In this document: piece by piece, positions 32,560 through 48,792 of the stretch
How positions within the stretch are numbered: position 1 is the first letter of the stretch
How the letters are laid out: every line of letters starts with the position of its first letter
Sequence record: OQ708376.1
Direction: 5' to 3' (one strand)
Source: Escherichia phage vB_EcoM_CRJP21
DNA length: 64,000 bases
The notes under the pieces: model-generated
Databases searched by the model: none
Told to the model about the DNA's origin: nothing
What the model saw: the letters and a program-made list of their open reading frames with translations, nothing else
Program-made: the position numbers and the translations under genes

Positions 32560-32892
32560 ATGGATTTAAAGCCAATTGTGGTTAACAAATACAAAGAACC
32601 GTATGATGTGTATATTGGACGTGGGTCTAAATGGGGAAACCCATTTACCCATATTAAAGATAAACAAACCAAAGCCGAGTTCATTGTTAGTACAAGAGAA
32701 GAATCAATTGAAAAATTCAGAGAATACATTATTGAACGTATTTCTTGTGGAGAAGTTAAGATTGATGAATTACTTGAACTCGCAGGGAAACGCCTTGGTT
32801 GTTTCTGTAAACCAAAATCATGTCACGGCGATGTTCTTGTCGAAATAGTGAGTGCAATATTAGATGAATTACCAGACGATAATCAAGGATGA
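32560..32892 (+). CDS. hypothetical protein (possibly DUF4326-like)
   Basis: 110 aa; YDVYIGRGSKWGNPF motif. Confidence 0.5.
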   Translation: MDLKPIVVNKYKEPYDVYIGRGSKWGNPFTHIKDKQTKAEFIVSTREESIEKFREYIIERISCGEVKIDELLELAGKRLGCFCKPKSCHGDVLVEIVSAILDELPDDNQG

Positions 32893-33410: not shown

Positions 33411-36107
33411 ATGTCAAAGAAAATATATGGTGGCTTAGATGTCACACATAATGTGACAGTTAATGGTAAAAGAACAATTCAAGGAATAAATGAACAAGTT
33501 TTTGATTCCAACGGTAACTTGGAATTAGATACTTATTCCAGAGATGAAGTACTAGATATAGTAAGTATGATGCCAATCTCCCATTATGGTTCACAAAACT
33601 ATCTACCTGCGGGTGTATCTGGGGATTTCAATGGTGCATCAGAAAACCAGTCACAACGTAGAAATAAAATTTTATTAGAAAACGATGGTACACTAGTACT
33701 TTTACGTAGTGGGACAAACGGTAGTGTTGAGGGATTATTTTATTCATATTTGGCTAACGCATTATCAGTTGATGACATGAGCCGTACAATTAACACTAGT
33801 CGTCAATACAAGCCTGGGTTTTTTGGTTCAAATAGAGTTGCGATTGGTTTATACAATACTGATCCAAATATTTTACTCGGTAGATATATTGATACTTCTA
33901 ACAGTACTAATGGTTTGTTCATATCAATTACCAATGGTACATTAGATGATAAATTGCATACTGGTTTTTTCGTTAACCAAGCAGATATATCACCTGAAGG
34001 TGGTATTGAATATGCTATGATGGCAGAAGATGGTTCTATATATGTTTTTAACGTACTTAATGAAAATAACCAACTACAATTAGTTGTTGTTAAAGTTGTT
34101 TATAATATAAGCAATGGTACTTATACTGCAACTCGAATTACTGGATGGACTACAAAAACATTCTATAATACAACTTATTCTGCACAGAATAACATGGTTA
34201 TTACTAATCAAGTAACTTCAACTAATATAGCAGATAAGCCTTATGTGTATGTACCACAAAACCTACGTGGTATTGGGATTTATATGACATCCATTGATTT
34301 GTATGTTGCACAGCAACCAGGAACACAGAACTTTCGTTTTAGAATGAATGGTGATGCATGGTTTACAATGGCGACATATAATGTCCGACCACAACATAGC
34401 TACAGCTTTGCATTTAATATGAGTACTAAACAATGCACCCTAGACGCTGGGAATGACATAGGTTCATATCAAGCACCATTGGTTATAACCAATACTGGCT
34501 CTGCATTAGTGCCTACAGGTAACGTTTTAAATAATGATCCATTATATAATCATGCTGGTGCAAGAAACATTTATAGTTCATATTTTTATTTGAATTCTGG
34601 TGAAGCTTTTTGTACTGCATGTCCAAACTTAGCAGAACCATTACTTATGCAAAAAGCTAAGTTTCCTATTCAAATAGTTTATAGTATGCTGAATGTCCGT
34701 GCTGTACTTTCTACTGACTTCAAAGGTGGTATAGTTCGCCCGTCTTTTGGTTCAGCGGTTGGTTCATTTATTAATGGTGTAGAATTACTACCAGATAACA
34801 GTACTAAACAATATTCACGTGCATCAGGTAGTGGTGGATTTAGACCATCATATGCAGTTCATAAAAGTACTCCTAATTTTACATTTAAATCATTATCTTT
34901 AGGAACAATACAAGGTTATGAACCTACAGTTGAACGTGCTAATGTTGATGATAATGCAAATAATAGAATTTTTATTAGTAGTATTTCTGGGTCAACTGTC
35001 ACAACCAATGGTGGTATTTTTATGGTTGGGCAACGTTATTCACAATCATTATCCTATGATAAAAACTTAAATGGCACAGGAATTATAAGCGTTACACAAT
35101 CAGTACTGGACAATTTTAGAAATACTGAATATGCCAAAGTTCTAAGTGATTGGAATTTATCAGCACAAGCATACCGTGATATGACACTATTTGTTCCACA
35201 ACAAACAGACATTCCAGCTTTTGTTATGTTGAGTACAATTACTAATGATTATAGAAACTATATTAGAATTGCTGAAGTTAATGTCAATACTAGAGTTGGT
35301 AATATTACATCTATTACATTTAAGCGTTTAGTACTTGAGAATACGTATGGTGATAACTTTACACCAACTGGGAATGGTTCGATTGCATCTTCTTCTGTTG
35401 GTTTGACAATATATGATGGTGGTTCATTCTACTTCATTGGTGGTTCTGACCCATTATCACATCCAACAATAGGTAATACTGCAACTCATCAATTTAGAGC
35501 ATATGTAACTAAATCAACTGCACAATTTACAAGTTTTATAATTACTGGTTCTCATGCCAGTTATGAACAAGGAAGTCAACCAGCAGCGTTACCTGGTATT
35601 GGTTTTGGAATTTTTGAACCAATGGATTACTCAAATAAAATGACATTCAAAAAATATGGAACAACGATTGCAGACTATAATAACTGGACTGCACAAGGTA
35701 GCCCAATTAACGTAGTATCCCAGGACGTTGCTCAAGGGTTTATTGTATATTTTACAGAGGAAACACCAGTTATTCTTTCAGGTAAGTCATTTTCACTACC
35801 AGTTTCAAATATTGATTTGAGAACTATTAAGTCTAATCCAGCAAATACAACATTTTATGTATATGTTAAATTGGAACAAGGATTGGCAAACTATTACATA
35901 ACTACTGATGTTATTTCTGAAACAGGAACAACTGCATATAATATTTTTTGGATAGGTACAATTCAAACTAATGCAATTCAAATCGAAACAATTAATATAC
36001 AAAAACGTTCCCGTTTAGATATATTTGGTGCTTCACTTGAATCAGCAGGTTCATCGTTCCCAGTTAGCTACGGTCTACCATCACAAACAGGAACCATAAA
36101 CTGGTAA
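33411..36107 (+). CDS. large structural-like protein (putative fibre/adhesin), paralog A
   Basis: 898 aa, S/T/N/G/Y-rich; N- and C-terminal modules shared with 36119 and 36723 proteins. Confidence 0.5.
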   Translation: MSKKIYGGLDVTHNVTVNGKRTIQGINEQVFDSNGNLELDTYSRDEVLDIVSMMPISHYGSQNYLPAGVSGDFNGASENQSQRRNKILLENDGTLVLLRSGTNGSVEGLFYSYLANALSVDDMSRTINTSRQYKPGFFGSNRVAIGLYNTDPNILLGRYIDTSNSTNGLFISITNGTLDDKLHTGFFVNQADISPEGGIEYAMMAEDGSIYVFNVLNENNQLQLVVVKVVYNISNGTYTATRITGWTTKTFYNTTYSAQNNMVITNQVTSTNIADKPYVYVPQNLRGIGIYMTSIDLYVAQQPGTQNFRFRMNGDAWFTMATYNVRPQHSYSFAFNMSTKQCTLDAGNDIGSYQAPLVITNTGSALVPTGNVLNNDPLYNHAGARNIYSSYFYLNSGEAFCTACPNLAEPLLMQKAKFPIQIVYSMLNVRAVLSTDFKGGIVRPSFGSAVGSFINGVELLPDNSTKQYSRASGSGGFRPSYAVHKSTPNFTFKSLSLGTIQGYEPTVERANVDDNANNRIFISSISGSTVTTNGGIFMVGQRYSQSLSYDKNLNGTGIISVTQSVLDNFRNTEYAKVLSDWNLSAQAYRDMTLFVPQQTDIPAFVMLSTITNDYRNYIRIAEVNVNTRVGNITSITFKRLVLENTYGDNFTPTGNGSIASSSVGLTIYDGGSFYFIGGSDPLSHPTIGNTATHQFRAYVTKSTAQFTSFIITGSHASYEQGSQPAALPGIGFGIFEPMDYSNKMTFKKYGTTIADYNNWTAQGSPINVVSQDVAQGFIVYFTEETPVILSGKSFSLPVSNIDLRTIKSNPANTTFYVYVKLEQGLANYYITTDVISETGTTAYNIFWIGTIQTNAIQIETINIQKRSRLDIFGASLESAGSSFPVSYGLPSQTGTINW

Positions 36108-36118
36108 AGGATTACATA

Positions 36119-36706
36119 ATGGCATATAAAATAAGAGCAGACCTTAAGGCAATGCAACAAGTTACAGTTCAGGGTAAAAGTACTGGTCTTGGTGTATTAG
36201 GTAATAATATGACTTATTACCCAACAAATTCAAATGGGGAATGTACATTCCCCTCTATTACCAAAGATGAAGTTAACTTTATTGTCAATGGATTACCACT
36301 TACACAATACGGAGAATTGTATGATGACGCTAGTCTAAATATTACTTCATCAGGCTATAGTCTTACATTTAATAGACAGATACCATCATTTATTGGTGGT
36401 TATCTTTATAAATTTCCAGCAGTTTCTATTTTTGCTTCAACTGTTTCATCTGGAACACAAACACAATACGTATATGCAACGTTAGTTCTCGGTGAACCAA
36501 TTTATAAAATATCACCAACACAAATACAAGAATCTGAAATTATAATGTTTATTGGAACACTGACCGTTGGTACAAGTGGTATTACAAATATAAACATTAA
36601 TAAAGTATCCAGATTTAGTACATATAGACCTAGTGTTACACAAAAAGGTTCTTCATTCCCAGTCAGTACTGGAAAACCATCAGAAACTGGTACAATTGGT
36701 TGGTAA
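36119..36706 (+). CDS. short paralog of fibre-like family
   Basis: 195 aa with the shared C-terminal module (RFSTYRPSVTQKGSSFPVSTGKPSETGTIGW). Confidence 0.5.
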   Translation: MAYKIRADLKAMQQVTVQGKSTGLGVLGNNMTYYPTNSNGECTFPSITKDEVNFIVNGLPLTQYGELYDDASLNITSSGYSLTFNRQIPSFIGGYLYKFPAVSIFASTVSSGTQTQYVYATLVLGEPIYKISPTQIQESEIIMFIGTLTVGTSGITNININKVSRFSTYRPSVTQKGSSFPVSTGKPSETGTIGW

Positions 36707-36722: not shown

Positions 36723-39452
36723 ATGTCATCAAAACGAATTATAGGAAGTGCCGAGATCCTTGGGAACTTGGCAATTGGACAAAGGTACGCTATGCGTACT
36801 TTTAATGGAACCTCACCGAATGCCAATACTGGAATTGTTCAATATCCAATATATAAGCGTTCAGAAGTTCAAAGTATTTTAGATATGTTGCCTATATCAC
36901 GTGTAGGAGAAATGGATTACTTGCCATTAAACGTAAGTGGGTCGTATGAAGGTGCTACACCTATGTCAAGTGACCAAGTAGTTCAGCCAACAATTATTGA
37001 AGATGATGGAACCGCCGTTGTTCTGCGTAGCGGAACCAATGGTAGTACTAAAGGTTTTTATTATTCATTTATACGAGAACTCCGAAATATAACTATGATT
37101 TCACAAGAAAGTGTTATTTCCACCAATTCAATGTATAAACCTTCAATTATGAGTAGTACTGAAAATATTAAGTATTTTATTGGCTCTAATGGTTATGAGA
37201 TGCTTGGATGTTTAAGTACAGAAGATAATTATATTTTCACTTTAACAAATGGTACATTCAACGAAATTTCACATATTCACGCTAAAGTTCCAAGTACATC
37301 ATTTGGAAATGATATGCCATTATACGTTCATATTGTAGGTTCTAAAGTATATATTTGGTGTAAAGATAAAAGTGTTTCTAATTTAGGATTAGCACTTTCA
37401 ATTTATACAGTAGAGCTAAGTGATGTGAAAGCAAGCTCAATGGCATCATTAACAAAAGTTACTGGATTATCAGGGCAAACTGTTCGAAATACAAGTTATT
37501 CTGCATCTAATAACATAAGAGTGTTTGATAGATTATATAGTGTTGGTACTAGCTCGGATTCATTATTCGAAGTTACATCACCAGTCTCACGTGTAGAATT
37601 TTCGGATTATACAGACTTTAATATACAAGCAAACGTTAGTACTGATTTATCCAAAATACGTGTAACTTTATACCCAACACATAGAATGGTTACACCTTTA
37701 TATATTTCAACAGTGTATGGTACTGGTATCAGTTTTGTTTATAATATAAACTCAAAATCTATGTCACTAGATGGTTCTGCTCGTGCTCCTGCGACAGTTT
37801 CATATAATAATGGCTTCCAAGTTACAAACCCATTTGAAATAGATATGGTAAACTTTACTGGAACAACAGCTACCGGAGTTTTAGGTAATGCTGGTGGGTT
37901 ATGTCAAACAAAAGATGGTCTTGTATTTGCATCTAAATTCAGATGGAGTTCTACTGAATTTTATGGTTTACAAAGATATAAAGTTAATGGTACACCATTT
38001 GATTCATGGGTAGCCAGTACTAGATCCGCAAGTAACGTTATAAATACAAACGTTTTACCAGTTTTTGGTAGTGCTGTTGGTGCAAACCTATTAGGTGTAC
38101 GTTTCATCGATAATAGAAAAATATTATTAGCATGTTCTGGTACGTATGATGATGTAACATATAATTATAATAATACTGTTTTTTCTGAAATAGGCCCACA
38201 ACCAACATATCAATATAACTCAGTTCAACATAATACTACATTAAATGGTTTTGCACCACAATCTAATCGTAAACAAATAGGTGATGATTTTACATACACT
38301 GCTATGATTTCTCTTGTTGATACCGATGGTAGTGTTAGATGTTATGGAACATCATTCATTGAAGGTGTATATAAAACAAGTGGTGGATTATTAAACCCAG
38401 ATACTTTAGAATTTGATGAAACATATACAATAGAACCAACGGTATTAGAATCATTAAAACAAGATATTTTTGCTAATCTAGGAAACTCTGGCATTGTTGG
38501 TACACTATCTGGACAAATTGTATTATATTATGTACCTGATAATACTTTTTCTAAATCCATTGCAGTAGTTTCAGCATATAATCTTAACAATAACCAAGGT
38601 TATGCAATTTATGCCGAAGTTGATGTTGTATTATCTGGATCTAACATAACTTCAGCTACATTGGTAAGTACTAGATATGAGACACTTAGTTCTGTTACAG
38701 GAATTATTACTGAAGCATATATGAAACGTTGTACTGGTCTAACAGTTGCTAAATATTCAGGATTTGGTTATATTGGTGTTGATGCAGTTCATCAATTTTC
38801 ACAACCAGGTAATGCACAATTTAAGATGATGATAGCTAAAACAGTAAATGGTGTCATAACATCAAATCGTTTTTTATCATCTAGTTACATCCAACTCGGT
38901 GCAGCATATCAACATGGTGTTATTCCTGGTGTTGGTTTTGGATATTACAATTTTCAAGATTCTGACTATCAAACCAAATCTGTATTCAGCGTTTTTGGTA
39001 CAACATCTGCTGAAATGGATGGTTTAATTAGCGGAAATGGTAGCGTTAAAGAAAAGATTGTGGTAGTATCACAAGACGTTGCACAAGGATTCTCAGTGTA
39101 CTTTACACGTGAAGTTCCGGTATTTTTAGGTGGAATTTTCGACAGACTACCTATACAAAGTGTAGATTTAAGTACTGTAAAAAATAATCCAGCTAATACT
39201 ACGTTCTATTTGTATATACAAATGAACAGGAATACTAAGAAAGCTTCATATGTTATTAGTACTGAAACTATTGATGAATCTTTAACTAGCACTTACATTG
39301 GTAAGATAGTTACTGGAACTTCAGGAATTACTTCGATTGATACTGAAAAAGTGACTCGTTTTTTGACATATCGCCCAAGTACAACGAAACGTGGTTCAGC
39401 GATACCTGCCAGTACTGGTGTACCGTCTGGGTCAGGCACACGTTGGAAATAA
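36723..39452 (+). CDS. large structural-like protein, paralog B
   Basis: ATG 36723 after AAGGAAAAG; ~909 aa. Confidence 0.5.
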   Translation: MSSKRIIGSAEILGNLAIGQRYAMRTFNGTSPNANTGIVQYPIYKRSEVQSILDMLPISRVGEMDYLPLNVSGSYEGATPMSSDQVVQPTIIEDDGTAVVLRSGTNGSTKGFYYSFIRELRNITMISQESVISTNSMYKPSIMSSTENIKYFIGSNGYEMLGCLSTEDNYIFTLTNGTFNEISHIHAKVPSTSFGNDMPLYVHIVGSKVYIWCKDKSVSNLGLALSIYTVELSDVKASSMASLTKVTGLSGQTVRNTSYSASNNIRVFDRLYSVGTSSDSLFEVTSPVSRVEFSDYTDFNIQANVSTDLSKIRVTLYPTHRMVTPLYISTVYGTGISFVYNINSKSMSLDGSARAPATVSYNNGFQVTNPFEIDMVNFTGTTATGVLGNAGGLCQTKDGLVFASKFRWSSTEFYGLQRYKVNGTPFDSWVASTRSASNVINTNVLPVFGSAVGANLLGVRFIDNRKILLACSGTYDDVTYNYNNTVFSEIGPQPTYQYNSVQHNTTLNGFAPQSNRKQIGDDFTYTAMISLVDTDGSVRCYGTSFIEGVYKTSGGLLNPDTLEFDETYTIEPTVLESLKQDIFANLGNSGIVGTLSGQIVLYYVPDNTFSKSIAVVSAYNLNNNQGYAIYAEVDVVLSGSNITSATLVSTRYETLSSVTGIITEAYMKRCTGLTVAKYSGFGYIGVDAVHQFSQPGNAQFKMMIAKTVNGVITSNRFLSSSYIQLGAAYQHGVIPGVGFGYYNFQDSDYQTKSVFSVFGTTSAEMDGLISGNGSVKEKIVVVSQDVAQGFSVYFTREVPVFLGGIFDRLPIQSVDLSTVKNNPANTTFYLYIQMNRNTKKASYVISTETIDESLTSTYIGKIVTGTSGITSIDTEKVTRFLTYRPSTTKRGSAIPASTGVPSGSGTRWK

Positions 39453-39457
39453 TTTTA

Positions 39458-39486
39458 AAGCTCGTCTATTGACGGGCTTTTCTTTT
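39458..39486 (+). terminator. intrinsic terminator
   Basis: AGCTCGTC / GACGGGCT stem then TTTTCTTTT. Confidence 0.55.
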
Positions 39487-39497
39487 ATGTGTATAAT
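39469..39497 (+). promoter_or_regulatory. sigma70 promoter TTGACG-17-TGTGTATAAT
   Basis: overlaps the terminator stem. Confidence 0.45.
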
Positions 39498-39519
39498 TGA
39501 ATAAAAATAGGAGGAAATT

Positions 39520-40086
39520 ATGGTTAAATCTTTGCTACCACCACCAAAACGTCATAAAATCAAAGAAATGAAAGAACAACGTACATTAAAGATGTACAAC
39601 AATTTAGTTCAGTTACTGTGTAAAAGTCCATCGCTCAAAGCAGAGTTTAAAACTGATGATGACCGCAAAGCACTAATTGAGATGAAGTATATGCTCAGTA
39701 AAATGTCCTTTTACAAATTTGTAAAAGAATACACAACTGACCCATTTAGTCCTCGTTGGAGATCCAAACCAAGAGAGTATTTTTACGGTGGTTCATATAC
39801 GGATCGCATTCAAGACACAGTGATGGGAGTTGAATTTGAAATCGATTATGAGCCGAATGGTGTGGAAAGCTGGCCGATTGAGAAACGTTTACCAAGTGAA
39901 GAAGAAATTTATGTTTATGCAAGAAAACTTTCAAATTTCAGTTCAAGAATTACTCTAGGCAATTTAGATTCATTTATTATTTTCTATACACGTGTTGGTG
40001 TAGATAAAATGGTAACTAAACTCAATGAACTTTCATTACAACAAAAACAGATTAATGCATACAAAGACATTACTGATTTATACTAA
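39520..40086 (+). CDS. hypothetical protein, tandem paralog 1 of 3
   Basis: 188 aa; shares a conserved segment with the next two genes. Confidence 0.5.
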   Translation: MVKSLLPPPKRHKIKEMKEQRTLKMYNNLVQLLCKSPSLKAEFKTDDDRKALIEMKYMLSKMSFYKFVKEYTTDPFSPRWRSKPREYFYGGSYTDRIQDTVMGVEFEIDYEPNGVESWPIEKRLPSEEEIYVYARKLSNFSSRITLGNLDSFIIFYTRVGVDKMVTKLNELSLQQKQINAYKDITDLY

Positions 40087-40098
40087 TGAGGAATGGAT

Positions 40099-40614
40099 AT
40101 GTTTTTTGGATCAGTTGGAAAACAAAACAGTACTTTAATTTGGCATGAAATTATCTTTAAAATTATATCTAAAAGCTACTCACTAAAGGATATTATTACC
40201 ACAGATAATGATAGACGTATCCTGTTAGATGCAAAATATAAATTGAGCAAACACCCTTTACTTTCTTTAATCATTGATTACGTTTGTGATTATGAATCTA
40301 GTCGTTGGAAGTGGGAAGACGGCGGTTTATTTCGTGGAAAAACATTCTACGGTGCGGAACGATATGTTTTCAGTGATACATCAAATGGCGTTAAGTTTGT
40401 TATTAGAAACTTTAACTCCAAAGAAAATGATTATCTTGAAAGTGGAGTGAAAGTATATATCGATAATAATAGCAATGTACTAACATATGACGAATCACTA
40501 ATTATGTTACAAATAATGCGTGGTGTTGAAGGTGTAAGAAACAACCTTACTAAATTGAAAATCCAGCAAAATGATATACATAATAGACAGAAAATTAAGG
40601 GTTTATATAAATGA
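40099..40614 (+). CDS. hypothetical protein, tandem paralog 2 of 3
   Basis: ATG 40099 after GAGGA (alternative ATG 40093). Confidence 0.5.
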   Translation: MFFGSVGKQNSTLIWHEIIFKIISKSYSLKDIITTDNDRRILLDAKYKLSKHPLLSLIIDYVCDYESSRWKWEDGGLFRGKTFYGAERYVFSDTSNGVKFVIRNFNSKENDYLESGVKVYIDNNSNVLTYDESLIMLQIMRGVEGVRNNLTKLKIQQNDIHNRQKIKGLYK

Positions 40615-41120
40615 TTTCATTTTTCAAAAAGAAACAAAAAGTTGATGAAACCGGATTAGAATCGTTTCTATGGACTCTTATCATCAAAAAAAGTCCATTG
40701 ATAAAAGAATATGCTATCAATGATGCTAATAGAAAAACTATCATTGAATACAAATATGAATTATCTAAATGTGATCCAATTGTTTATCACTTTGCGAAGT
40801 ACTGTTCAAAAAATTTATCGGATATCACAATCTACCACGAGTCAGTCCCAATGAGTTTTCCTTATGGTGATTGGGTAGATACTTTTGATATTTTTGATGG
40901 GTCAAATGGTTTCAGTTTCTTTTACTCGTCAAATAAAGCAAGTGTTCGTATTAAAACAGACATAGGTTGGACAAAGCATAGCTCAAATAAAGAAGATTAT
41001 AATTTATTAGCTGACGTATACCGAAGTGTGAAGAATTCAAAGGATATTGATGAAAGAATTAAAAAGCAAAATCGTATATCTTTATCACTTGAAACATACA
41101 AGTCAAAGTATGGTGGTTAA
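40611..41120 (+). CDS. hypothetical protein, tandem paralog 3 of 3
   Basis: 169 aa. Confidence 0.5.
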   Translation: MISFFKKKQKVDETGLESFLWTLIIKKSPLIKEYAINDANRKTIIEYKYELSKCDPIVYHFAKYCSKNLSDITIYHESVPMSFPYGDWVDTFDIFDGSNGFSFFYSSNKASVRIKTDIGWTKHSSNKEDYNLLADVYRSVKNSKDIDERIKKQNRISLSLETYKSKYGG

Positions 41121-41122
41121 CT

Positions 41123-41524
41123 ATGACTACAGTTGATGATATCTATAGCACTATACGCAATATGAGTACAGATAGAAAAGTATTTGGCGATAAAGAAAAA
41201 TCTAAGTGTTATGGTATTGATTCTTTTGATATAATTTCTTATGAGTACAATACAAGTGGAAATAGTTCACTGAATATCGTCTGTCCTCGTGATCCAGAAA
41301 ATAATTTTATGTATGTTGAAATTAATAATGATGGAATGTTTTTTACAAAAGTTTTAAAAGGTGGAATTAATTACGAACCTATTGAATGTATGAATGAAGA
41401 AACTTTCTTTCAAGAAGATACAATTATCAATTTAGGTTTTAGTTTTGATGATTATAAAACATTAGAACATGACTTTAATCGTTATTATAATGGTTTCTTA
41501 AAGGAGTTAACAATTTATCTATGA
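41123..41524 (+). CDS. hypothetical protein
   Basis: 133-aa ORF. Confidence 0.5.
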   Translation: MTTVDDIYSTIRNMSTDRKVFGDKEKSKCYGIDSFDIISYEYNTSGNSSLNIVCPRDPENNFMYVEINNDGMFFTKVLKGGINYEPIECMNEETFFQEDTIINLGFSFDDYKTLEHDFNRYYNGFLKELTIYL

Positions 41525-42753
41525 ATAACCAATATATTGAACAAACAATAGTGAAACACTTGGCTGGGTCACAAGCCTACGGAACCAGTACACCTGAAAG
41601 TGATACTGATTATCGTGGTATTTTTCTTGCTAATAAAGAATTTATTCTTACACCCTTCTATAAGGTCAAAGAGGTAGCTGATAAAAGCGAAGAAGATACT
41701 AAATTCTATGAGTTGAATCAGTATTTAAAATTATACACTGAAGCTAACCCTAATATTCTTGAATCACTTTGGGTTGAACCTGAACACATTGTTGAAAGTA
41801 CTGAAATTTATGACTATCTTCGTTCATTTAACCAAAAACTTCTTAGTTCCAAGATTGCATTTTCATACACTGGATATGCATATAATCAGATTAAGCGTAT
41901 GACAAATCATCACGGTTGGATGGATAAAGAGCGTATTGCTGAAAAACGATTAAATGAGATTTTAGAAGAACACCCAGTCGATGAGGTTCTTGCGTGGATG
42001 TATGATTCATTTCCACAATATCTTGTTGAACGTTTAGATACATCGAACTTACATCCATTTAATGCTAAAAAGATTGATTTTGAAAAATATATGCGTGATA
42101 CGTCATTGCAGTTAGTTTCGAAAAATCCATTAAAGCAATATCATTTTGTAAGATTAGTGCATAACTACACTACTGATAAAATTCTAGATCGTGATTTCAA
42201 TTTATTGAATTTTAATAATGGCTATGAACTAATTCATTACGGAGAAAACATTTTTGCGATTATTAAAAATCCGAATGAAAGTACTATCAATGGTGATGGT
42301 TCATTGCGTTATTTTTCTAAAGAGCGTAGTACTGAAGAGTTGAAAACCAAACCAGAACTGATTGTCAAATTTAACGAAAAAGAATATCAGGAAAATAGTG
42401 AGAATAGGAAAAGTTATCATAAATGGAAAGAAAATCGTAATGCCAAACGTGCTATTTTAGAATCACAGCACGGATACGATTGTAAACATGCTATGCACAC
42501 AATCCGACTTTTGAATAGTGCAGAAGAAGCATTACAAAGTGGTATTATTCAAGTTAAACGTCCTGATGCACAAATGCTGATGGATATTCGCAATGGTAAG
42601 TGGAAATATGAAGAAGTATTAGAATACTTTGATGATAAAGTAAAATATATTCGTGATGTTCTATATAAGAAATCTGTACTTCCTAAAAAACCAAACATCA
42701 AATTAGCATCAAAAATTATCATTGATATTAGAGAAATGCAATGGTATAAGTAA
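41521..42753 (+). CDS. Pol-beta superfamily nucleotidyltransferase
   Basis: N-terminal GSQAYGTSTPESDTDYRGIF fits GS...SDxD nucleotidyltransferase signature. Confidence 0.55.
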   Translation: MNNQYIEQTIVKHLAGSQAYGTSTPESDTDYRGIFLANKEFILTPFYKVKEVADKSEEDTKFYELNQYLKLYTEANPNILESLWVEPEHIVESTEIYDYLRSFNQKLLSSKIAFSYTGYAYNQIKRMTNHHGWMDKERIAEKRLNEILEEHPVDEVLAWMYDSFPQYLVERLDTSNLHPFNAKKIDFEKYMRDTSLQLVSKNPLKQYHFVRLVHNYTTDKILDRDFNLLNFNNGYELIHYGENIFAIIKNPNESTINGDGSLRYFSKERSTEELKTKPELIVKFNEKEYQENSENRKSYHKWKENRNAKRAILESQHGYDCKHAMHTIRLLNSAEEALQSGIIQVKRPDAQMLMDIRNGKWKYEEVLEYFDDKVKYIRDVLYKKSVLPKKPNIKLASKIIIDIREMQWYK

Positions 42754-42921
42754 CATATACAAGTGTAATGGTACTAAAAATGCCATTACACTCAATAAAT
42801 ACTCAATATAAATTAACACAAGGATTAAGTATGGCACAACAAATTTTCACAGATATCCACACTACCGGAGTTATTAAATTTCAAAATAATTTTTCTGGTG
42901 CTACTGGTGTAGACATTAAAA

Positions 42922-43458
42922 ATGATGGTTTTAACATTGTCAGTACTCGGATCTATTGATGGTGAAGATAGTTCTCTTAGTGATTCTGTGATTGCATCAT
43001 TCGGAACTAATAAAAACAGTTCTTTTATTATATCTGGATGGACTGGAATGACTGATTCTGAAAATAATGTTAAGATAAAAGCTAAAGCTACTAACGAGAA
43101 TCATGAAACAGAATGGGTAACATTATATGATAGTGCAAGTAATAAGTTATATAATGTATTAAGTTCTAATAATATTTTAATTAATCCACTGTCGGGCAAT
43201 GCTGTTTTTAATATTAATTTATCTGATAGAAATACTACTATTTCGATTGGTGCGGCTCCTACTGAAGTTTATTCAATTACCATCCTATTAACACAACAAA
43301 CAGGTTCAAACCTAGTTAATTGGGGTTCTAATGTTAAATGGTCATATAACAGACCAGTTGTTCTTTCTTATGAAATTGGTGAAAAAGATATTATTTCATT
43401 AGAAACATATGATAAAGGAGTTACATGGTACGGTGCATTAATTAGAGCAGGAGTATGA
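42922..43458 (+). CDS. hypothetical beta-rich protein (possibly fused to upstream ORF 42831-42959 via frameshift)
   Basis: no RBS at 42922; upstream ORF with AAGGA RBS ends at 42959 in another frame; A5 run at 42918-42922. Confidence 0.4.
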   Translation: MMVLTLSVLGSIDGEDSSLSDSVIASFGTNKNSSFIISGWTGMTDSENNVKIKAKATNENHETEWVTLYDSASNKLYNVLSSNNILINPLSGNAVFNINLSDRNTTISIGAAPTEVYSITILLTQQTGSNLVNWGSNVKWSYNRPVVLSYEIGEKDIISLETYDKGVTWYGALIRAGV

Positions 43459-43459
43459 T

Positions 43460-46249
43460 ATGTTAAACAATAATATTGATAATATTGTACAACTTCTTTA
43501 TGGGCATCACAAATTTATTGAAAGAAATACTGGTGATACAATAGACCCAACAGTACAACATTATGTGGTGAATAATCAGGGTGTTTTGGCGAACAACCGT
43601 CATTTTATTAACTATTCTGCAATGGAAGGTCAACCAAACGGTGACGGGACAACAGAAGGTCAAAGTCTATTAATTTTGGGATACATTTATGCGTATCTGG
43701 CAACAAATGATCCAATGTTTTTAGATAAAGCCAAATGGTACTGGGATGCATATCATCAGTACTTTTATGCTGGACGTGAATTACCAGACCCACCAACTCC
43801 ACTTCAATGTAACTGGATAGTTAATGCCAAAGAACCGATTTTGGCTAACTGGCCTTTAGCTGATGATGGATGGCCTACACATGGTGGTTTCAAGGGTGTA
43901 GAATTTACATTTACAAATGGACAATGTAAAATACCACATGGTGCACCTTATTATGGTCAGTTCTTGGATAAAGTAACATTCGCATTCAAAGGTGCTTTAG
44001 CATGGAACCAAATAAATGCGTCAGTAAAAGCATTACTACCAGATGGTAGTGTTGATTGGGATACCCCTGGTGATCAATATGATGTTGACTGGATTATTGA
44101 TTTCATGGGTAGAAAAATCGACTGGGATGGTAATATTTTAGCAGAAGGTTTTGACGAATCTGAAAAAGGAACGGTTCAATTAAAAAATACAACAATTAAT
44201 GGTGTATATAAATTAAATTTTGCTAATCGTCAACCAGTAGAATATGGTGGTGTGATAATTCAACGAAATGAAATGCAACACAACCGACCACTTCATGTTC
44301 CAATTGATTTGGAATTTGCGGATAATGCATCAGATGCAGAATTGTGGTTTAGTGATGCTTCTTATTTGTTATATAAAATAACAAAAGAAAGAAAACATTA
44401 TTTGGGTTGGAAATGTTCATTACTCACATGCTATGCTTATGGTGATATCGACTCCAGAGATAAATTTTTCAGACAAAGTACAATTGTAACCACACCATTC
44501 ACTGATGGTATTTCCTATGAATATTTTTATCCAAGTGATGCTATCGCTAAGTTTGGTAGAAATTCTTTAGGATATATTACTATCAGGCAAGACCAAAGTG
44601 CACAAAGTACAATGGAACAACAAGCTATTTGGTTCAGGGTCAATGCTGATTCTAAATTACTTGTAGATTATGGTGGTGTATGTGATGATGGTAAGCCGTT
44701 ATCATTTAAACCAGTACTGGAATTGTCTAAAACAAAAAATGATCATGATGTAGTAAGATATCGTTGTGGATTACCAGAAAGTAAAGACCAAAATATCACA
44801 CATTCATTAACACCTTTAAGTGCATTTGTTAGAGAAAAGAAAGCAGATGGTTCCCCTTATATAATTGCTGATAGTAGAATAGTTGTTCCTTATGGTGCAG
44901 CTACGTCCGAAATGATATATAGTACTGATATATTAGTTACACGCCGAGATACCATTAATCAGTTAGTTTGTGGTGAAGATGATGGTGCTGTTATTGGATT
45001 TTGGCTATTAGCAACAAATAAGTCTGAAGTTAAATCTTTTACATATCGTTCATATGAAGATGATTACAATATAAGAATTGTAGATGATAATGGTTGGAGA
45101 TGGTGGTGGATGATTCCTGCAACACACGGGGAATGGACTACAATCACACTAAGTTCCGATACATTACGTTTATCTGGGTATCAGCCAAATCATCCAAGTT
45201 CTGACCCAAGACCAGATGCACCAGTATATAGTGAGCTAGAAGATATTACTATTTTACCTGATACAACCCCAGTAGATGGTGTTGCTGCAATAATTGATTG
45301 GTATTGTATTAATGACATTCCAGAATTATATACGGATGCTGACGGTGATGACTATACTATGACATTTTCAATAACAATTGCAGGTGAATCACCATATACT
45401 GCACAGTTAGGGGATTGTGTAATCAAAGATTATTTGTTAAACTCATTGCATTACACACCAGGAACAATACCATTTTCTAACATCACTGACCCGTATGCGA
45501 ACCAGTACTCAGGTTGGCGTGGTTTACCGTATCCAGGTTATCAATATCCAGTGATATATTGTTTTAAAGACCAGCCAGTAGATAACACACGCTTAGGAAA
45601 CATGTTAAGCTTTATGAAAGATTCCCAAACATGGTTTACTCAACAATTCGGTACTGTTGGTCCGTGTGCACAAGCATATGTTTGGAACCGCTGGGATAAC
45701 TTAAAATATGGTGAACCAGATACATTTACTATGCTACATTGGGGTGATCAAGCATGGAGTGGGTATGAACCACGTGCGTTCTTTGGGGCTGCCAGAGCAT
45801 GGCAAGAACTCGCAGAGAGAGGAATTGAACCACCAGCAGATCTTGTTGAATTTTGTGAGAATTGGATTCACTTTTTAATTCAATTTCAAAAAGATAATGA
45901 TGGTCGTTCACCAACAATCTTCAATAAAGATGGCACAGTTGAAGGTCCAGATTGGGACTTTACAGGTCATATGTGTGGGTTGTGGTTAGCTGGGGCTTGT
46001 GCTGCTGGATTGGCTGGATGTAAAATAGAAGGTCTAACAACACTCGCTGATAACTTAGTTCTCGAACTTCAAAAGAATTATGTTATTGTAAATCCAGGTT
46101 CCCCAATGAATGGTTCATGGAGTCCAGCAGTTAGAGAAGGTACTGATAATGGTATGTTTTTTGGTTTCTGGGCAGGTGAGATTATGCGTGGATTGGGGTT
46201 ATACTCAATGTACCGTTTAAACACACCAAATCGTTTCCGTGATTTATAA
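43460..46249 (+). CDS. large hypothetical protein (Trp-rich)
   Basis: 929-aa ORF. Confidence 0.55.
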   Translation: MLNNNIDNIVQLLYGHHKFIERNTGDTIDPTVQHYVVNNQGVLANNRHFINYSAMEGQPNGDGTTEGQSLLILGYIYAYLATNDPMFLDKAKWYWDAYHQYFYAGRELPDPPTPLQCNWIVNAKEPILANWPLADDGWPTHGGFKGVEFTFTNGQCKIPHGAPYYGQFLDKVTFAFKGALAWNQINASVKALLPDGSVDWDTPGDQYDVDWIIDFMGRKIDWDGNILAEGFDESEKGTVQLKNTTINGVYKLNFANRQPVEYGGVIIQRNEMQHNRPLHVPIDLEFADNASDAELWFSDASYLLYKITKERKHYLGWKCSLLTCYAYGDIDSRDKFFRQSTIVTTPFTDGISYEYFYPSDAIAKFGRNSLGYITIRQDQSAQSTMEQQAIWFRVNADSKLLVDYGGVCDDGKPLSFKPVLELSKTKNDHDVVRYRCGLPESKDQNITHSLTPLSAFVREKKADGSPYIIADSRIVVPYGAATSEMIYSTDILVTRRDTINQLVCGEDDGAVIGFWLLATNKSEVKSFTYRSYEDDYNIRIVDDNGWRWWWMIPATHGEWTTITLSSDTLRLSGYQPNHPSSDPRPDAPVYSELEDITILPDTTPVDGVAAIIDWYCINDIPELYTDADGDDYTMTFSITIAGESPYTAQLGDCVIKDYLLNSLHYTPGTIPFSNITDPYANQYSGWRGLPYPGYQYPVIYCFKDQPVDNTRLGNMLSFMKDSQTWFTQQFGTVGPCAQAYVWNRWDNLKYGEPDTFTMLHWGDQAWSGYEPRAFFGAARAWQELAERGIEPPADLVEFCENWIHFLIQFQKDNDGRSPTIFNKDGTVEGPDWDFTGHMCGLWLAGACAAGLAGCKIEGLTTLADNLVLELQKNYVIVNPGSPMNGSWSPAVREGTDNGMFFGFWAGEIMRGLGLYSMYRLNTPNRFRDL

Positions 46250-48101: not shown

Positions 48102-48131
48102 GGGACTTGAGTATTCAAGTCCTTTTTTTTT
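48102..48131 (+). terminator. intrinsic terminator
   Basis: GGGACTTGA-gtat-TCAAGTCC then T9. Confidence 0.65.
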
Positions 48132-48142
48132 GGAGAAAATAT

Positions 48143-48415
48143 ATGAAAACAAAATTATTTCCACAACAAATAATGATTGAACTGTGCGAACATCAGTCTG
48201 GTGAAGTTGTTACAATCAGTGGTGATACGTATTCCATCATTTTAAATGAACAACAATTTGATCATACAAACCATACGAATGAACTGTATAATCTTATGTT
48301 TATGGACGATAAGAGTGAAAAATACTATCATTGTACATATGAACGATGTATAGATACAACACCATTTTGTAATGAAATGGTTGGTGTTAAATGTTATGAA
48401 TGTGAAGTGTTATGA
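48143..48415 (+). CDS. hypothetical Cys-rich protein, tandem paralog 1 of 2
   Basis: MKTKLFPQQIMIELCEH ... KYYHCTYER. Confidence 0.5.
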   Translation: MKTKLFPQQIMIELCEHQSGEVVTISGDTYSIILNEQQFDHTNHTNELYNLMFMDDKSEKYYHCTYERCIDTTPFCNEMVGVKCYECEVL

Positions 48416-48435: not shown

Positions 48436-48792
48436 ATGAAAACAAAAATCTTTCTACCACAAACCATGATGGAACTGTGTGAACATGATGCAGGGGATGT
48501 TGTCACTATTAGTGGTTCCTGGAATGAGAGTACTGAAGACTTTATGCCAGATGAGGTATATTCTGTTGTTTTAAATGAACAGTACAATACAAGCCGTTGG
48601 AATGCACAGTACAATCTAGTTTTTCTTGACAATAACAATGAAAAGTACTATCATTGTACGTATGAACGAGGTCTGACAGAACGTAACTACACAACTCCTT
48701 TCTGTGATGAAATGGATGGTGTAAAGTGCTATGAAGTTTATGTTCGTCAGGTTCCAGTTGTTACTTACAAAACCGAGTGGGATTATCTGTAA
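48436..48792 (+). CDS. hypothetical Cys-rich protein, tandem paralog 2 of 2
   Basis: MKTKIFLPQTMMELCEH ... KYYHCTYER. Confidence 0.5.
   Translation: MKTKIFLPQTMMELCEHDAGDVVTISGSWNESTEDFMPDEVYSVVLNEQYNTSRWNAQYNLVFLDNNNEKYYHCTYERGLTERNYTTPFCDEMDGVKCYEVYVRQVPVVTYKTEWDYL

Follow-up and report, generated by a model that had tools for sequence, protein, structure and literature searches.

The window analysed in this study is a 64,000-nucleotide (nt) stretch of Escherichia phage vB_EcoM_CRJP21 (record OQ708376.1), a jumbo coliphage of the 121Q/PBECO4 type (Asteriusvirus), in which three consecutive genes, designated A, B and C, precede a small gene resembling gp505 of phage 121Q and a gene for the RNA-mending nucleotidyltransferase RlaP. 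Sequence and profile comparisons indicated that the products of A, B and C form one family of proteins that are homologous over their full length, and published data on homologues indicated that these are non-virion proteins. We propose, with a probability of about 0.3, that the family acts in an RNA-repair or counter-defence programme of the phage, in which its members would be early cytoplasmic accessory proteins.

The region from 39400 to 41600 was 98.7% identical to that of Escherichia phage 121Q and 89 to 99% identical to those of more than 30 Asteriusvirus genomes, including PBECO4, phAPEC6, G17 and Sharanji. A preliminary description of this DNA had listed a tandem triplet of paralogous open reading frames (ORFs) of 188, 173 and 169 amino acids (aa); the three ORFs were present at these lengths and contained the peptides quoted for them. 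Translation of B most probably starts at its second ATG, at 40099, resulting in a protein of 171 aa with the N terminus MFFG. This codon lies 7 nt 3' of the Shine-Dalgarno sequence GAGGA and is the start annotated in 121Q, and the same N terminus recurs in many relatives. Homologues of A, B and C were labelled "hypothetical protein" throughout 30 or more GenBank records and appear elsewhere under the names gp321c to gp319c (phAPEC6), GAP32_146/148/150/151 and CBB_150/153/155/156.

Proteins A and B aligned end to end with 29% identity (BLASTP E = 9e-15) and were also paired in an all-versus-all comparison of the 230 ORFs of the window (E = 1.4e-12). The BLASTP matches of C to A and to B were weak (E = 9e-5 and 4e-4, respectively), were limited to the N-terminal 30 to 40 aa and missed the E = 1e-3 cut-off of the all-versus-all run, as might be expected if three unrelated ORFs shared a chance or compositional similarity. 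This explanation is refuted by the full-length A-B match, by cross-matches between independent PHROG profiles and by retrieval of both types with a single profile, and its probability is negligible. Each protein matched the profile of its own PHROG family over its full length (E = 7e-79 for A and 5e-85 for B with phrog_18641; E = 3e-56 for C with phrog_7868). The C-type profile, phrog_7868, also matched residues 10 to 173 of B (E = 3.1e-11) as well as A (E = 1.1e-6), and the A/B-type profile, phrog_18641, matched C (E = 6.3e-5). A hidden Markov model (HMM) of the family, built with all three sequences included, scored A, B and C at 1e-46 to 1e-56. A joint profile recovered A/B- and C-types together, in many phages, from 1.84 billion proteins, and scans of the loci detected a clean gap in score between members and non-members with no twilight matches. 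Because the independent profiles cross-match, the joint profile recovers both types and the scores are separated by this gap, the homology extends over the full length and does not reside in an N-terminal motif alone. PHROGs lists two separate families, whereas the cross-matches and the joint profile show that there is one. The paralogy proposed in the preliminary description was therefore upheld, and the alignment that it had suggested as a check detected similarity well beyond chance; the N-terminal segment on which it had relied was present, but the similarity was not confined to it.

Members of the family share a length of ~170 aa, the order of their secondary structure elements and a set of conserved residues, features that also argue against a chance similarity. 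Overall identity among 53 members was only ~20%, yet a signature could be defined (KS-x2-L-x6-D-x2-R-x3-[IL]-x2-KY-x2-S, followed by D-x6-F and by a Y near the C terminus), the positions of which (K27, S28, D38, R41, K48, Y49, S52, D95, F102 and Y172 in B numbering) were kept in 79 to 98% of these members. Proteins A, B and C are soluble and have isoelectric points (pI) of about 9, within a family-wide range of 5.9 to 9.4. AlphaFold prediction with a 10-sequence alignment gave a predicted local distance difference test (pLDDT) score of 61, and an AlphaFold2 model of B based on a 30-sequence alignment had a pLDDT of 87.6 and a predicted template modelling score of 0.79. The latter model consisted of helices at residues 17 to 65, a four-strand sheet at residues 72 to 123 and a 40-residue C-terminal helix at residues 132 to 171. 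Residues D38, R41, K48, Y49 and S52 were assigned to one face of helix 3 from their spacing, by helical periodicity and not from the coordinates of the model.

Searches for known domains were uniformly negative. Comparison of A, B and C with Pfam detected nothing at E <= 1, NCBIfam gave nothing significant, and when 30 members of the family were compared with Pfam the only matches were chance ones of single members; neither Pfam nor NCBIfam detected a helix-turn-helix or other DNA-binding family in the trio. No match below E = 0.14 was obtained when PDB sequences were searched with a profile, the resemblances of the B model to solved structures were all below significance, and the Foldseek matches in BFVD were all to uncharacterised proteins from related jumbo phages. 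The MntA protein AMPylates a tyrosine of HepT, and in view of the invariant C-terminal tyrosine an HEPN partner of the MntA-HepT type was considered. This candidate was rejected because the R-x4-6-H motif is impossible without a conserved histidine, of which there was none in the 53-member alignment, and the fold is alpha/beta and not all-helical.

An exhaustive HMMER search of the 1.84 billion proteins placed the family in 31 representative clusters at 50% identity. All members that were fetched came from Rak2-like jumbo phages or from metagenomic contigs sharing their gene order, and the arrangement was syntenic in Asteriusvirus, Alcyoneusvirus, Mimasvirus, Eneladusvirus and metagenomic relatives. 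Across the Rak2-like phages the position of the family was constant and its copy number varied from 1 to 4. Scans with the family HMM detected three copies in every Asteriusvirus and in Salmonella phage 7t3, two in Klebsiella Muenster/RaK2-type genomes and several metagenomic loci, four in CBB, GAP32 and Serratia BF-type genomes, one weakly scoring copy in Erwinia phage Hallingskeid and none in Xanthomonas phage XaC1. The same scans detected no further copy in the window, and a rebuilt HMM applied with filters off detected no further members or twilight matches in 25 loci. Two XaC1 proteins, XaC1_215 and XaC1_219, were rejected as members since hhalign detected no relationship, and ORFs of ~160 aa located 3' of RlaP in other genera were rejected by the family HMM scans.

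In a neighbour-joining tree, C of the window, the third genes of A4 and JNE01 and Muenster_2 formed a C-type clade, and the other clade was of the A/B type. The CBB_153 protein and the member in metagenomic locus L012, which are both encoded beside Thg1, were closer to C by identity and fell outside the C-type clade in the tree. The split between C-type and A/B-type members is, on the evidence of this tree, older than the genera, and the duplication giving A and B looks specific to Asteriusvirus. The shared synteny and the two-clade tree argue for an old, syntenic array and against a recent local burst. Copy number did vary between related phages, as the preliminary description had suggested might be found, but its proposal of a local gene family expansion was not supported.

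Evolutionary rates were examined with the gene-wide ratio of nonsynonymous to synonymous substitution rates (dN/dS), measured against the close relatives UE-S1, ph0011 and Turkey3. Values of 0.12 to 0.26 were obtained for A, B and C, 0.02 to 0.05 for RlaP and 0.03 to 0.06 for gp505. These ratios indicated that the trio is under purifying selection that is several-fold more relaxed than that on its neighbours; positive selection was not demonstrated. The comparison proposed earlier, of dN/dS among the copies themselves, was unusable because synonymous sites are saturated between proteins that are 19 to 28% identical.

Three discrete types of the trio, those of 121Q, A4 and JNE01, were found within Asteriusvirus. 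Identities between these types were 27 to 41% for A, B and C, 61 to 68% for gp505 and 73 to 88% for RlaP, and identities between Asteriusvirus and Klebsiella phage Muenster were 21 to 36%, 58 to 65% and 67 to 74%, respectively. The trio contained the fastest-diverging genes of the locus, and its types within one genus were, by these values, as far apart as each was from the Klebsiella phage copies. Identities to B in the phage database fell into two separate groups, of at least 87.7% or at most 37.3%. Furthermore, A, B and C switched type jointly. The RlaP of A4 was closer to that of the window than was the RlaP of Turkey3 (88% versus 83%), whereas the A4 trio was 34 to 41% identical and the Turkey3 trio 91 to 92% identical. 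This mosaic pattern and the two groups of identities point to replacement of a cassette between the conserved promoter and gp505/RlaP rather than to a uniform clock.

Information on virion content was drawn from the literature on homologues in phAPEC6 and CBB and not from the CRJP21 isolate. The phAPEC6 homologues gp319c to gp321c are absent from a 62-protein virion proteome in which the neighbouring products gp323c, gp314c and gp315c are present. In mass spectrometry of CBB, CBB_148 and CBB_149 were detected and CBB_150, 153, 155 and 156 were not flagged. Within the portion of the CBB supplementary text files available to us, these four genes are listed in the annotation table and not in the file that holds a 22-ORF paralog table.

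The positions of the features of the locus are collected in Table 1. A hairpin, AAAGCTCGTC-TATT-GACGGGCTTT (39457-39480; 10 pairs, including a G-T pair), followed by a T-run, is situated in the 67-nt gap 3' of the preceding structural gene. The 3' arm of this hairpin contains a -35 element, TTGACG (39469-39474), which is separated by 17 nt from the -10 element TATAAT (39492-39497). This sigma-70-type promoter (39469-39497) matched at 11 of 12 positions and was the best site in 10 kb, so that the "own promoter" of the preliminary description was confirmed as a sequence feature conserved across genera. A terminator with an embedded promoter preceded the first family gene in all 15 loci examined, CBB included, with the -35 sequence TTGAC(A/G) in the 3' arm or the loop of the hairpin across genera, and three unrelated metagenomic contigs kept this architecture with different stem sequences. 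In an eight-phage alignment, 4 of the 10 stem pairs had changed on both sides, and pairing was maintained in 95% of cells, compared to 20 to 50% when the 3' partner was slid. These patterns indicated a compact device for stopping a late gene and starting an early gene.

Table 1. Features of the A-B-C locus and its flanks in the 64,000-nt window
Feature	Position	Strand	Description
Terminator-promoter composite	39457-39497	+	Basis: scan, cross-genus conservation and covariation
Shine-Dalgarno of A	39509-39514	+	AGGAGG
Paralog A	39520-40086	+	188 aa; 121Q gp502; A/B-type; phrog_18641
Paralog B	40093-40614	+	Longest ORF 173 aa; 121Q gp503; A/B-type; phrog_18641
Paralog C	40611-41120	+	169 aa; 121Q gp504; C-type; phrog_7868
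gp505-like protein	41123-41524	+	133 aa; phrog_22376
RlaP nucleotidyltransferase	41521-42753	+	410 aa, long-form; PF10127 Pol-beta; 121Q gp506; phrog_388
Stem-loop GTGTAATGG-11 nt-CCATTACAC	42763-42791	+	9-bp stem directly 3' of RlaP stop; probable end of transcription unit
Late-promoter-like AATAAATA	42794-42801	+	T4-late-promoter-like; ahead of virion and fibre genes
Late-promoter-like TATAAATT	42807-42814	+	T4-late-promoter-like; ahead of virion and fibre genes

Downstream of the promoter the genes are tightly packed, with a gap of 6 nt between A and B, an ATGA overlap of the B stop and C start, a gap of 2 nt between C and gp505 and a second ATGA overlap of the gp505 stop and RlaP start. 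A sequence scan detected no terminator-like sites between the promoter and the RlaP stop, and RlaP would be the last gene of the putative operon; the stem-loop that follows was also present in UE-S1. The two putative late promoters, AATAAATA and TATAAATT, precede the gene for a 42-aa virion protein (42831-42959). This gene lies at the start of a tail-fibre block, gp507 to gp509 (42831-46249), that is an insertion/deletion polymorphism; Turkey3, UE-S1 and ph0011 are without it and have an acyl-carrier-protein gene directly after RlaP. In the related phage PA5oct, promoters of the TTGAC/TATAAT type are found around transcription start sites defined by RNA-seq, the presumed early region of CBB is characterised by RpoD-like promoters, and a late motif, ATAAATA, has been reported for CBB and GAP32. 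Because of the RpoD-type promoter, the tight packing and the promoter usage in PA5oct and CBB, we infer that A, B, C, gp505 and RlaP form one early unit, with transcription by the host RNA polymerase and coupled translation, both its timing and its co-transcription being predicted. No match was obtained when the entire window was scanned for tRNA genes and Rfam families.

The gp505-like protein gave nothing significant in Pfam, NCBIfam and PADLOC scans, and its divergence between relatives tracked that of the trio. The Pfam match of RlaP was above the cut-off (E = 6.4e-16). This enzyme adds one or two nucleotides to the 3'-OH ends of RNA, with a preference for damaged RNA, restores the function of over-trimmed tRNA with an indiscriminate choice of nucleotide and works without the trio family in bacteria (PMC12776372). 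In jumbo phages RlaP accompanies RNA ligases (PMC7824862), and in other phages RlaP is encoded among genes for tRNA repair. Loci were collected from IMG/VR by alignment of RlaP and not of the family, which is too poorly conserved for that purpose. All 13 loci with a long-form (410-aa) RlaP carried 2 to 4 family members upstream on the same strand, whereas none of the 67 short-form loci contained a member, and none was found in the RlaP loci of Vequintavirinae, KLEP7 and Vibrio D148. All positive loci came from one phage clade, and association with RlaP was not detected in independent lineages.

Further arrangements of the family were observed in other loci. In two metagenomic loci, L006 and L011, one member lies immediately next to RlaP or overlaps it, and in CBB, GAP32, fHe-Yen9-03/-04 and L012 the gene for a C-type member overlaps the 3' end of the gene for Thg1, which functions in tRNA 5'-end repair. 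In sister genera, members are interleaved with genes for Thg1, an N4-cytosine methyltransferase and DUF4326, a predicted ribose-phosphate phosphatase that would process ribose-linked phosphates. There was no Thg1 in the 64-kb window. At 32560-32892, between nrdD and nrdG, the window has a homologue of DUF4326 (37% identity to CBB_154; E = 6e-24), whereas CBB-like phages have their DUF4326 gene amid the members of the family. An extra ORF of ~150 aa between the gp505-like gene and RlaP, lacking in the window, was observed in JNE01, Muenster, Hallingskeid and metagenomic relatives (L003, L004, L007, L014 and L015); the Muenster_238-type extra ORF was rejected as a family member (hhalign probability, 5%).

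The three genes upstream of the terminator, gp499, gp500 and gp501 (33411-36107, 36119-36706 and 36792-39452), form another set of paralogs, with a common C-terminal domain of ~120 aa (E = 2e-22 to 8e-60; phrog_3573/phrog_26864), and the homologue of gp499 is a virion protein of phAPEC6. These genes are strongly mosaic between close relatives (28 to 77% identity) and for this reason probably encode host-range fibres or "hairs". No coding sequence is annotated in the phAPEC6 record (L002, 3708-6515) over the part that corresponds to gp500 and the greater part of gp501 of 121Q; as the DNA match continues, this is probably an annotation gap and not a deletion. Two further tandem pairs listed in the preliminary description were real: 48107-48415 and 48436-48792 encode proteins with 53% identity (E = 2e-32; both phrog_6343), and 57576-57992 and 57979-58401 encode proteins with 41% identity over 54 aa (E = 1e-9; both phrog_20693). 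Neither pair had a Pfam match.

A role in RNA repair is proposed because RlaP mends damaged RNA 3' ends and because family members interleave or overlap with Thg1 and DUF4326. Members could be partners through which RlaP and Thg1 recognise their targets, and the lack of nucleotide specificity in RlaP itself (PMC12776372) leaves a possible gap for a partner to fill; alternatively, they may bind and inhibit variable host RNA-targeting effectors. The working surface would combine D95 and the near-invariant C-terminal tyrosine with the stripe on helix 3 (D38, R41, K48, Y49 and S52 of B), the fast-diverging remainder setting the specificity of each paralog. More specifically, the family could be a class of small proteins, not recognised before, that have a new fold and work with RlaP and Thg1, either as specificity subunits directing RlaP to a particular damaged tRNA and to the nucleotide to be added, or as decoys or inhibitors of host anticodon nucleases. 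Under this narrower proposal, which is rather doubtful, co-inherited paralogs might assemble through their long C-terminal helices, each covering a different target, and such a scheme would explain the discrete, fast-diverging cassette types. Several observations weigh against a function in RNA repair. Adaptors for conserved tRNAs are unlikely to diverge this fast, which favours the inhibitor variant over the adaptor one. As every genome with a family member comes from a single collinear phage clade, gene order inherited within that clade, and not functional coupling, may account for the linkage to RlaP and Thg1. RlaP occurs without the family in the 67 other phage loci and in bacteria, XaC1 has a long-form RlaP, Thg1 and DUF4326 but no detectable member, and the search of 1.84 billion proteins detected no fused architecture linking the family to any enzyme. 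The preliminary description had also suggested functions in host interaction or immunity. Fast divergence (27 to 41% identity versus 73 to 88% for RlaP) and the RNA-repair neighbourhood fit host interaction, but the dN/dS of 0.12 to 0.26 reflects relaxed purifying selection and does not demonstrate positive selection. For immunity, PADLOC yielded only one weak match of the trio, of A to DUF2290 (E = 0.014), and neither PADLOC models nor solved anti-defence structures gave an anti-phage defence or anti-defence match; that suggestion was not supported. The trio is a reasonable, though unproven, candidate for involvement in the arms race between phage and host.

The location of the trio raised the question of whether its products are assembly chaperones for the tail fibres or "hairs" encoded by gp499 to gp501, comparable to T4 gp38/gp57A or Tfa. 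In loci that extend upstream, the first family gene directly follows a gene for a virion or fibre-like protein of ~900 aa, and in CRJP21 three fibre-like paralogs precede three small paralogs. The covariation-supported terminator and the RpoD-type promoter, however, part the trio from the fibre genes, and late-promoter-like motifs occur further downstream, after RlaP and ahead of the fibre genes there, while late structural genes of this clade use promoters of the ATAAATA type. The fibre-like genes are, like the trio, mosaic and hypervariable, but their divergence is uncoupled from that of the trio: the ph0011 fibres were 28 to 51% identical and its trio 88 to 94% identical, and in JNE01 gp499 was 77% identical and the trio 30 to 38%. 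Copy number (1 to 4) was also independent of fibre count, with two members beside three fibre genes in Muenster, and XaC1 keeps a 911-aa structural protein with no member. Assembly chaperones are typically absent from virions, in agreement with the phAPEC6 and CBB data, but CBB and its relatives interleave members with Thg1, DUF4326 and methyltransferase genes and not with fibre genes, and the Pfam searches, which covered chaperone families, gave no match. The break at the terminator and promoter, the absence of co-variation with the fibre genes and the mingling of members with repair genes in other phages make a fibre-chaperone role quite improbable.

The RpoD-type promoter, the basic pI of A, B and C and the N-terminal helical bundle would also be compatible with generic early proteins for host takeover or regulation, for example proteins binding DNA or RNA polymerase, that lie beside RlaP through inherited gene order. 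Early accessory genes of phages often diverge rapidly, and the confinement of the family to one clade and the presence of RlaP without a member in XaC1 agree with such a role, which is a tentative possibility. Persistence of the repair-gene linkage is less readily explained in this way, since gp505, Thg1, DUF4326, the methyltransferase and the ~150-aa ORF are each found in only some loci, and the overlaps with RlaP (L011) and with Thg1 (L012 and CBB) suggest coupled expression. The absence of DNA-binding families in Pfam and NCBIfam and of significant structural resemblances also argues against regulatory proteins. Another explanation is enzymatic: the three small proteins would have a new fold and a catalytic site built from the invariant Asp, Arg, Lys, Tyr and Ser, and their substrates, which would differ between paralogs, would be RNA ends, nucleotides or ADP-ribose derivatives. 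A polar set (D38, R41, K48, Y49, S52, D95 and Y172) is conserved despite ~20% overall identity, and neighbouring genes encode end-processing enzymes (RlaP, Thg1 and the predicted DUF4326 phosphatase). The conserved residues, most of which are along one face of a helix, would fit a binding surface or a structural salt-bridge network equally well, no similarity to known enzyme folds or families was detected and such fast overall divergence is unusual for enzymes; an enzymatic role is unlikely.

Jumbo phages carry hundreds of genes without known function, and finding those involved in conflict with the host narrows the experimental search. The trio stands out in having the fastest divergence of its locus, discrete cassettes within one genus and no detectable relative among solved structures while being packed with an enzyme that mends RNA after cleavage by host defence nucleases. 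If the proposed link to RNA repair is true, the family would supply a missing specificity or protection component for phage tRNA-repair pathways. If the link is not real, the annotation is still useful, with two PHROG families merged, an operon defined and a fibre-chaperone role made unlikely.

Comparison with known systems placed the trio closest to several arrangements without equating it to any of them. T4 gp38/gp57A and the Tfa chaperones of lambda and Mu are, like the products of the trio, small non-virion proteins encoded after large variable fibre-like genes; the trio differs in its terminator and early-type promoter, in not co-varying with the fibre genes and in having no sequence similarity to these chaperones. 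The RCC1-like "DNA condensation" paralogs 121Q_234 to 121Q_248 are also tandem, diverged arrays typical of very large Rak2-like genomes, but they are virion components with a recognisable domain, in contrast to the products of the trio, which are non-virion proteins without a match to any known domain. In the RNA-repair neighbourhoods described for other phages, RlaP is found with RNA ligases, polynucleotide kinase, a CCA-adding enzyme, Thg1 and Pth2 (PMC7824862, PMC12776372). The trio family has no recognisable RNA-binding or catalytic domain and is not a component of any described RNA-repair system, but it is likewise packed with RlaP.

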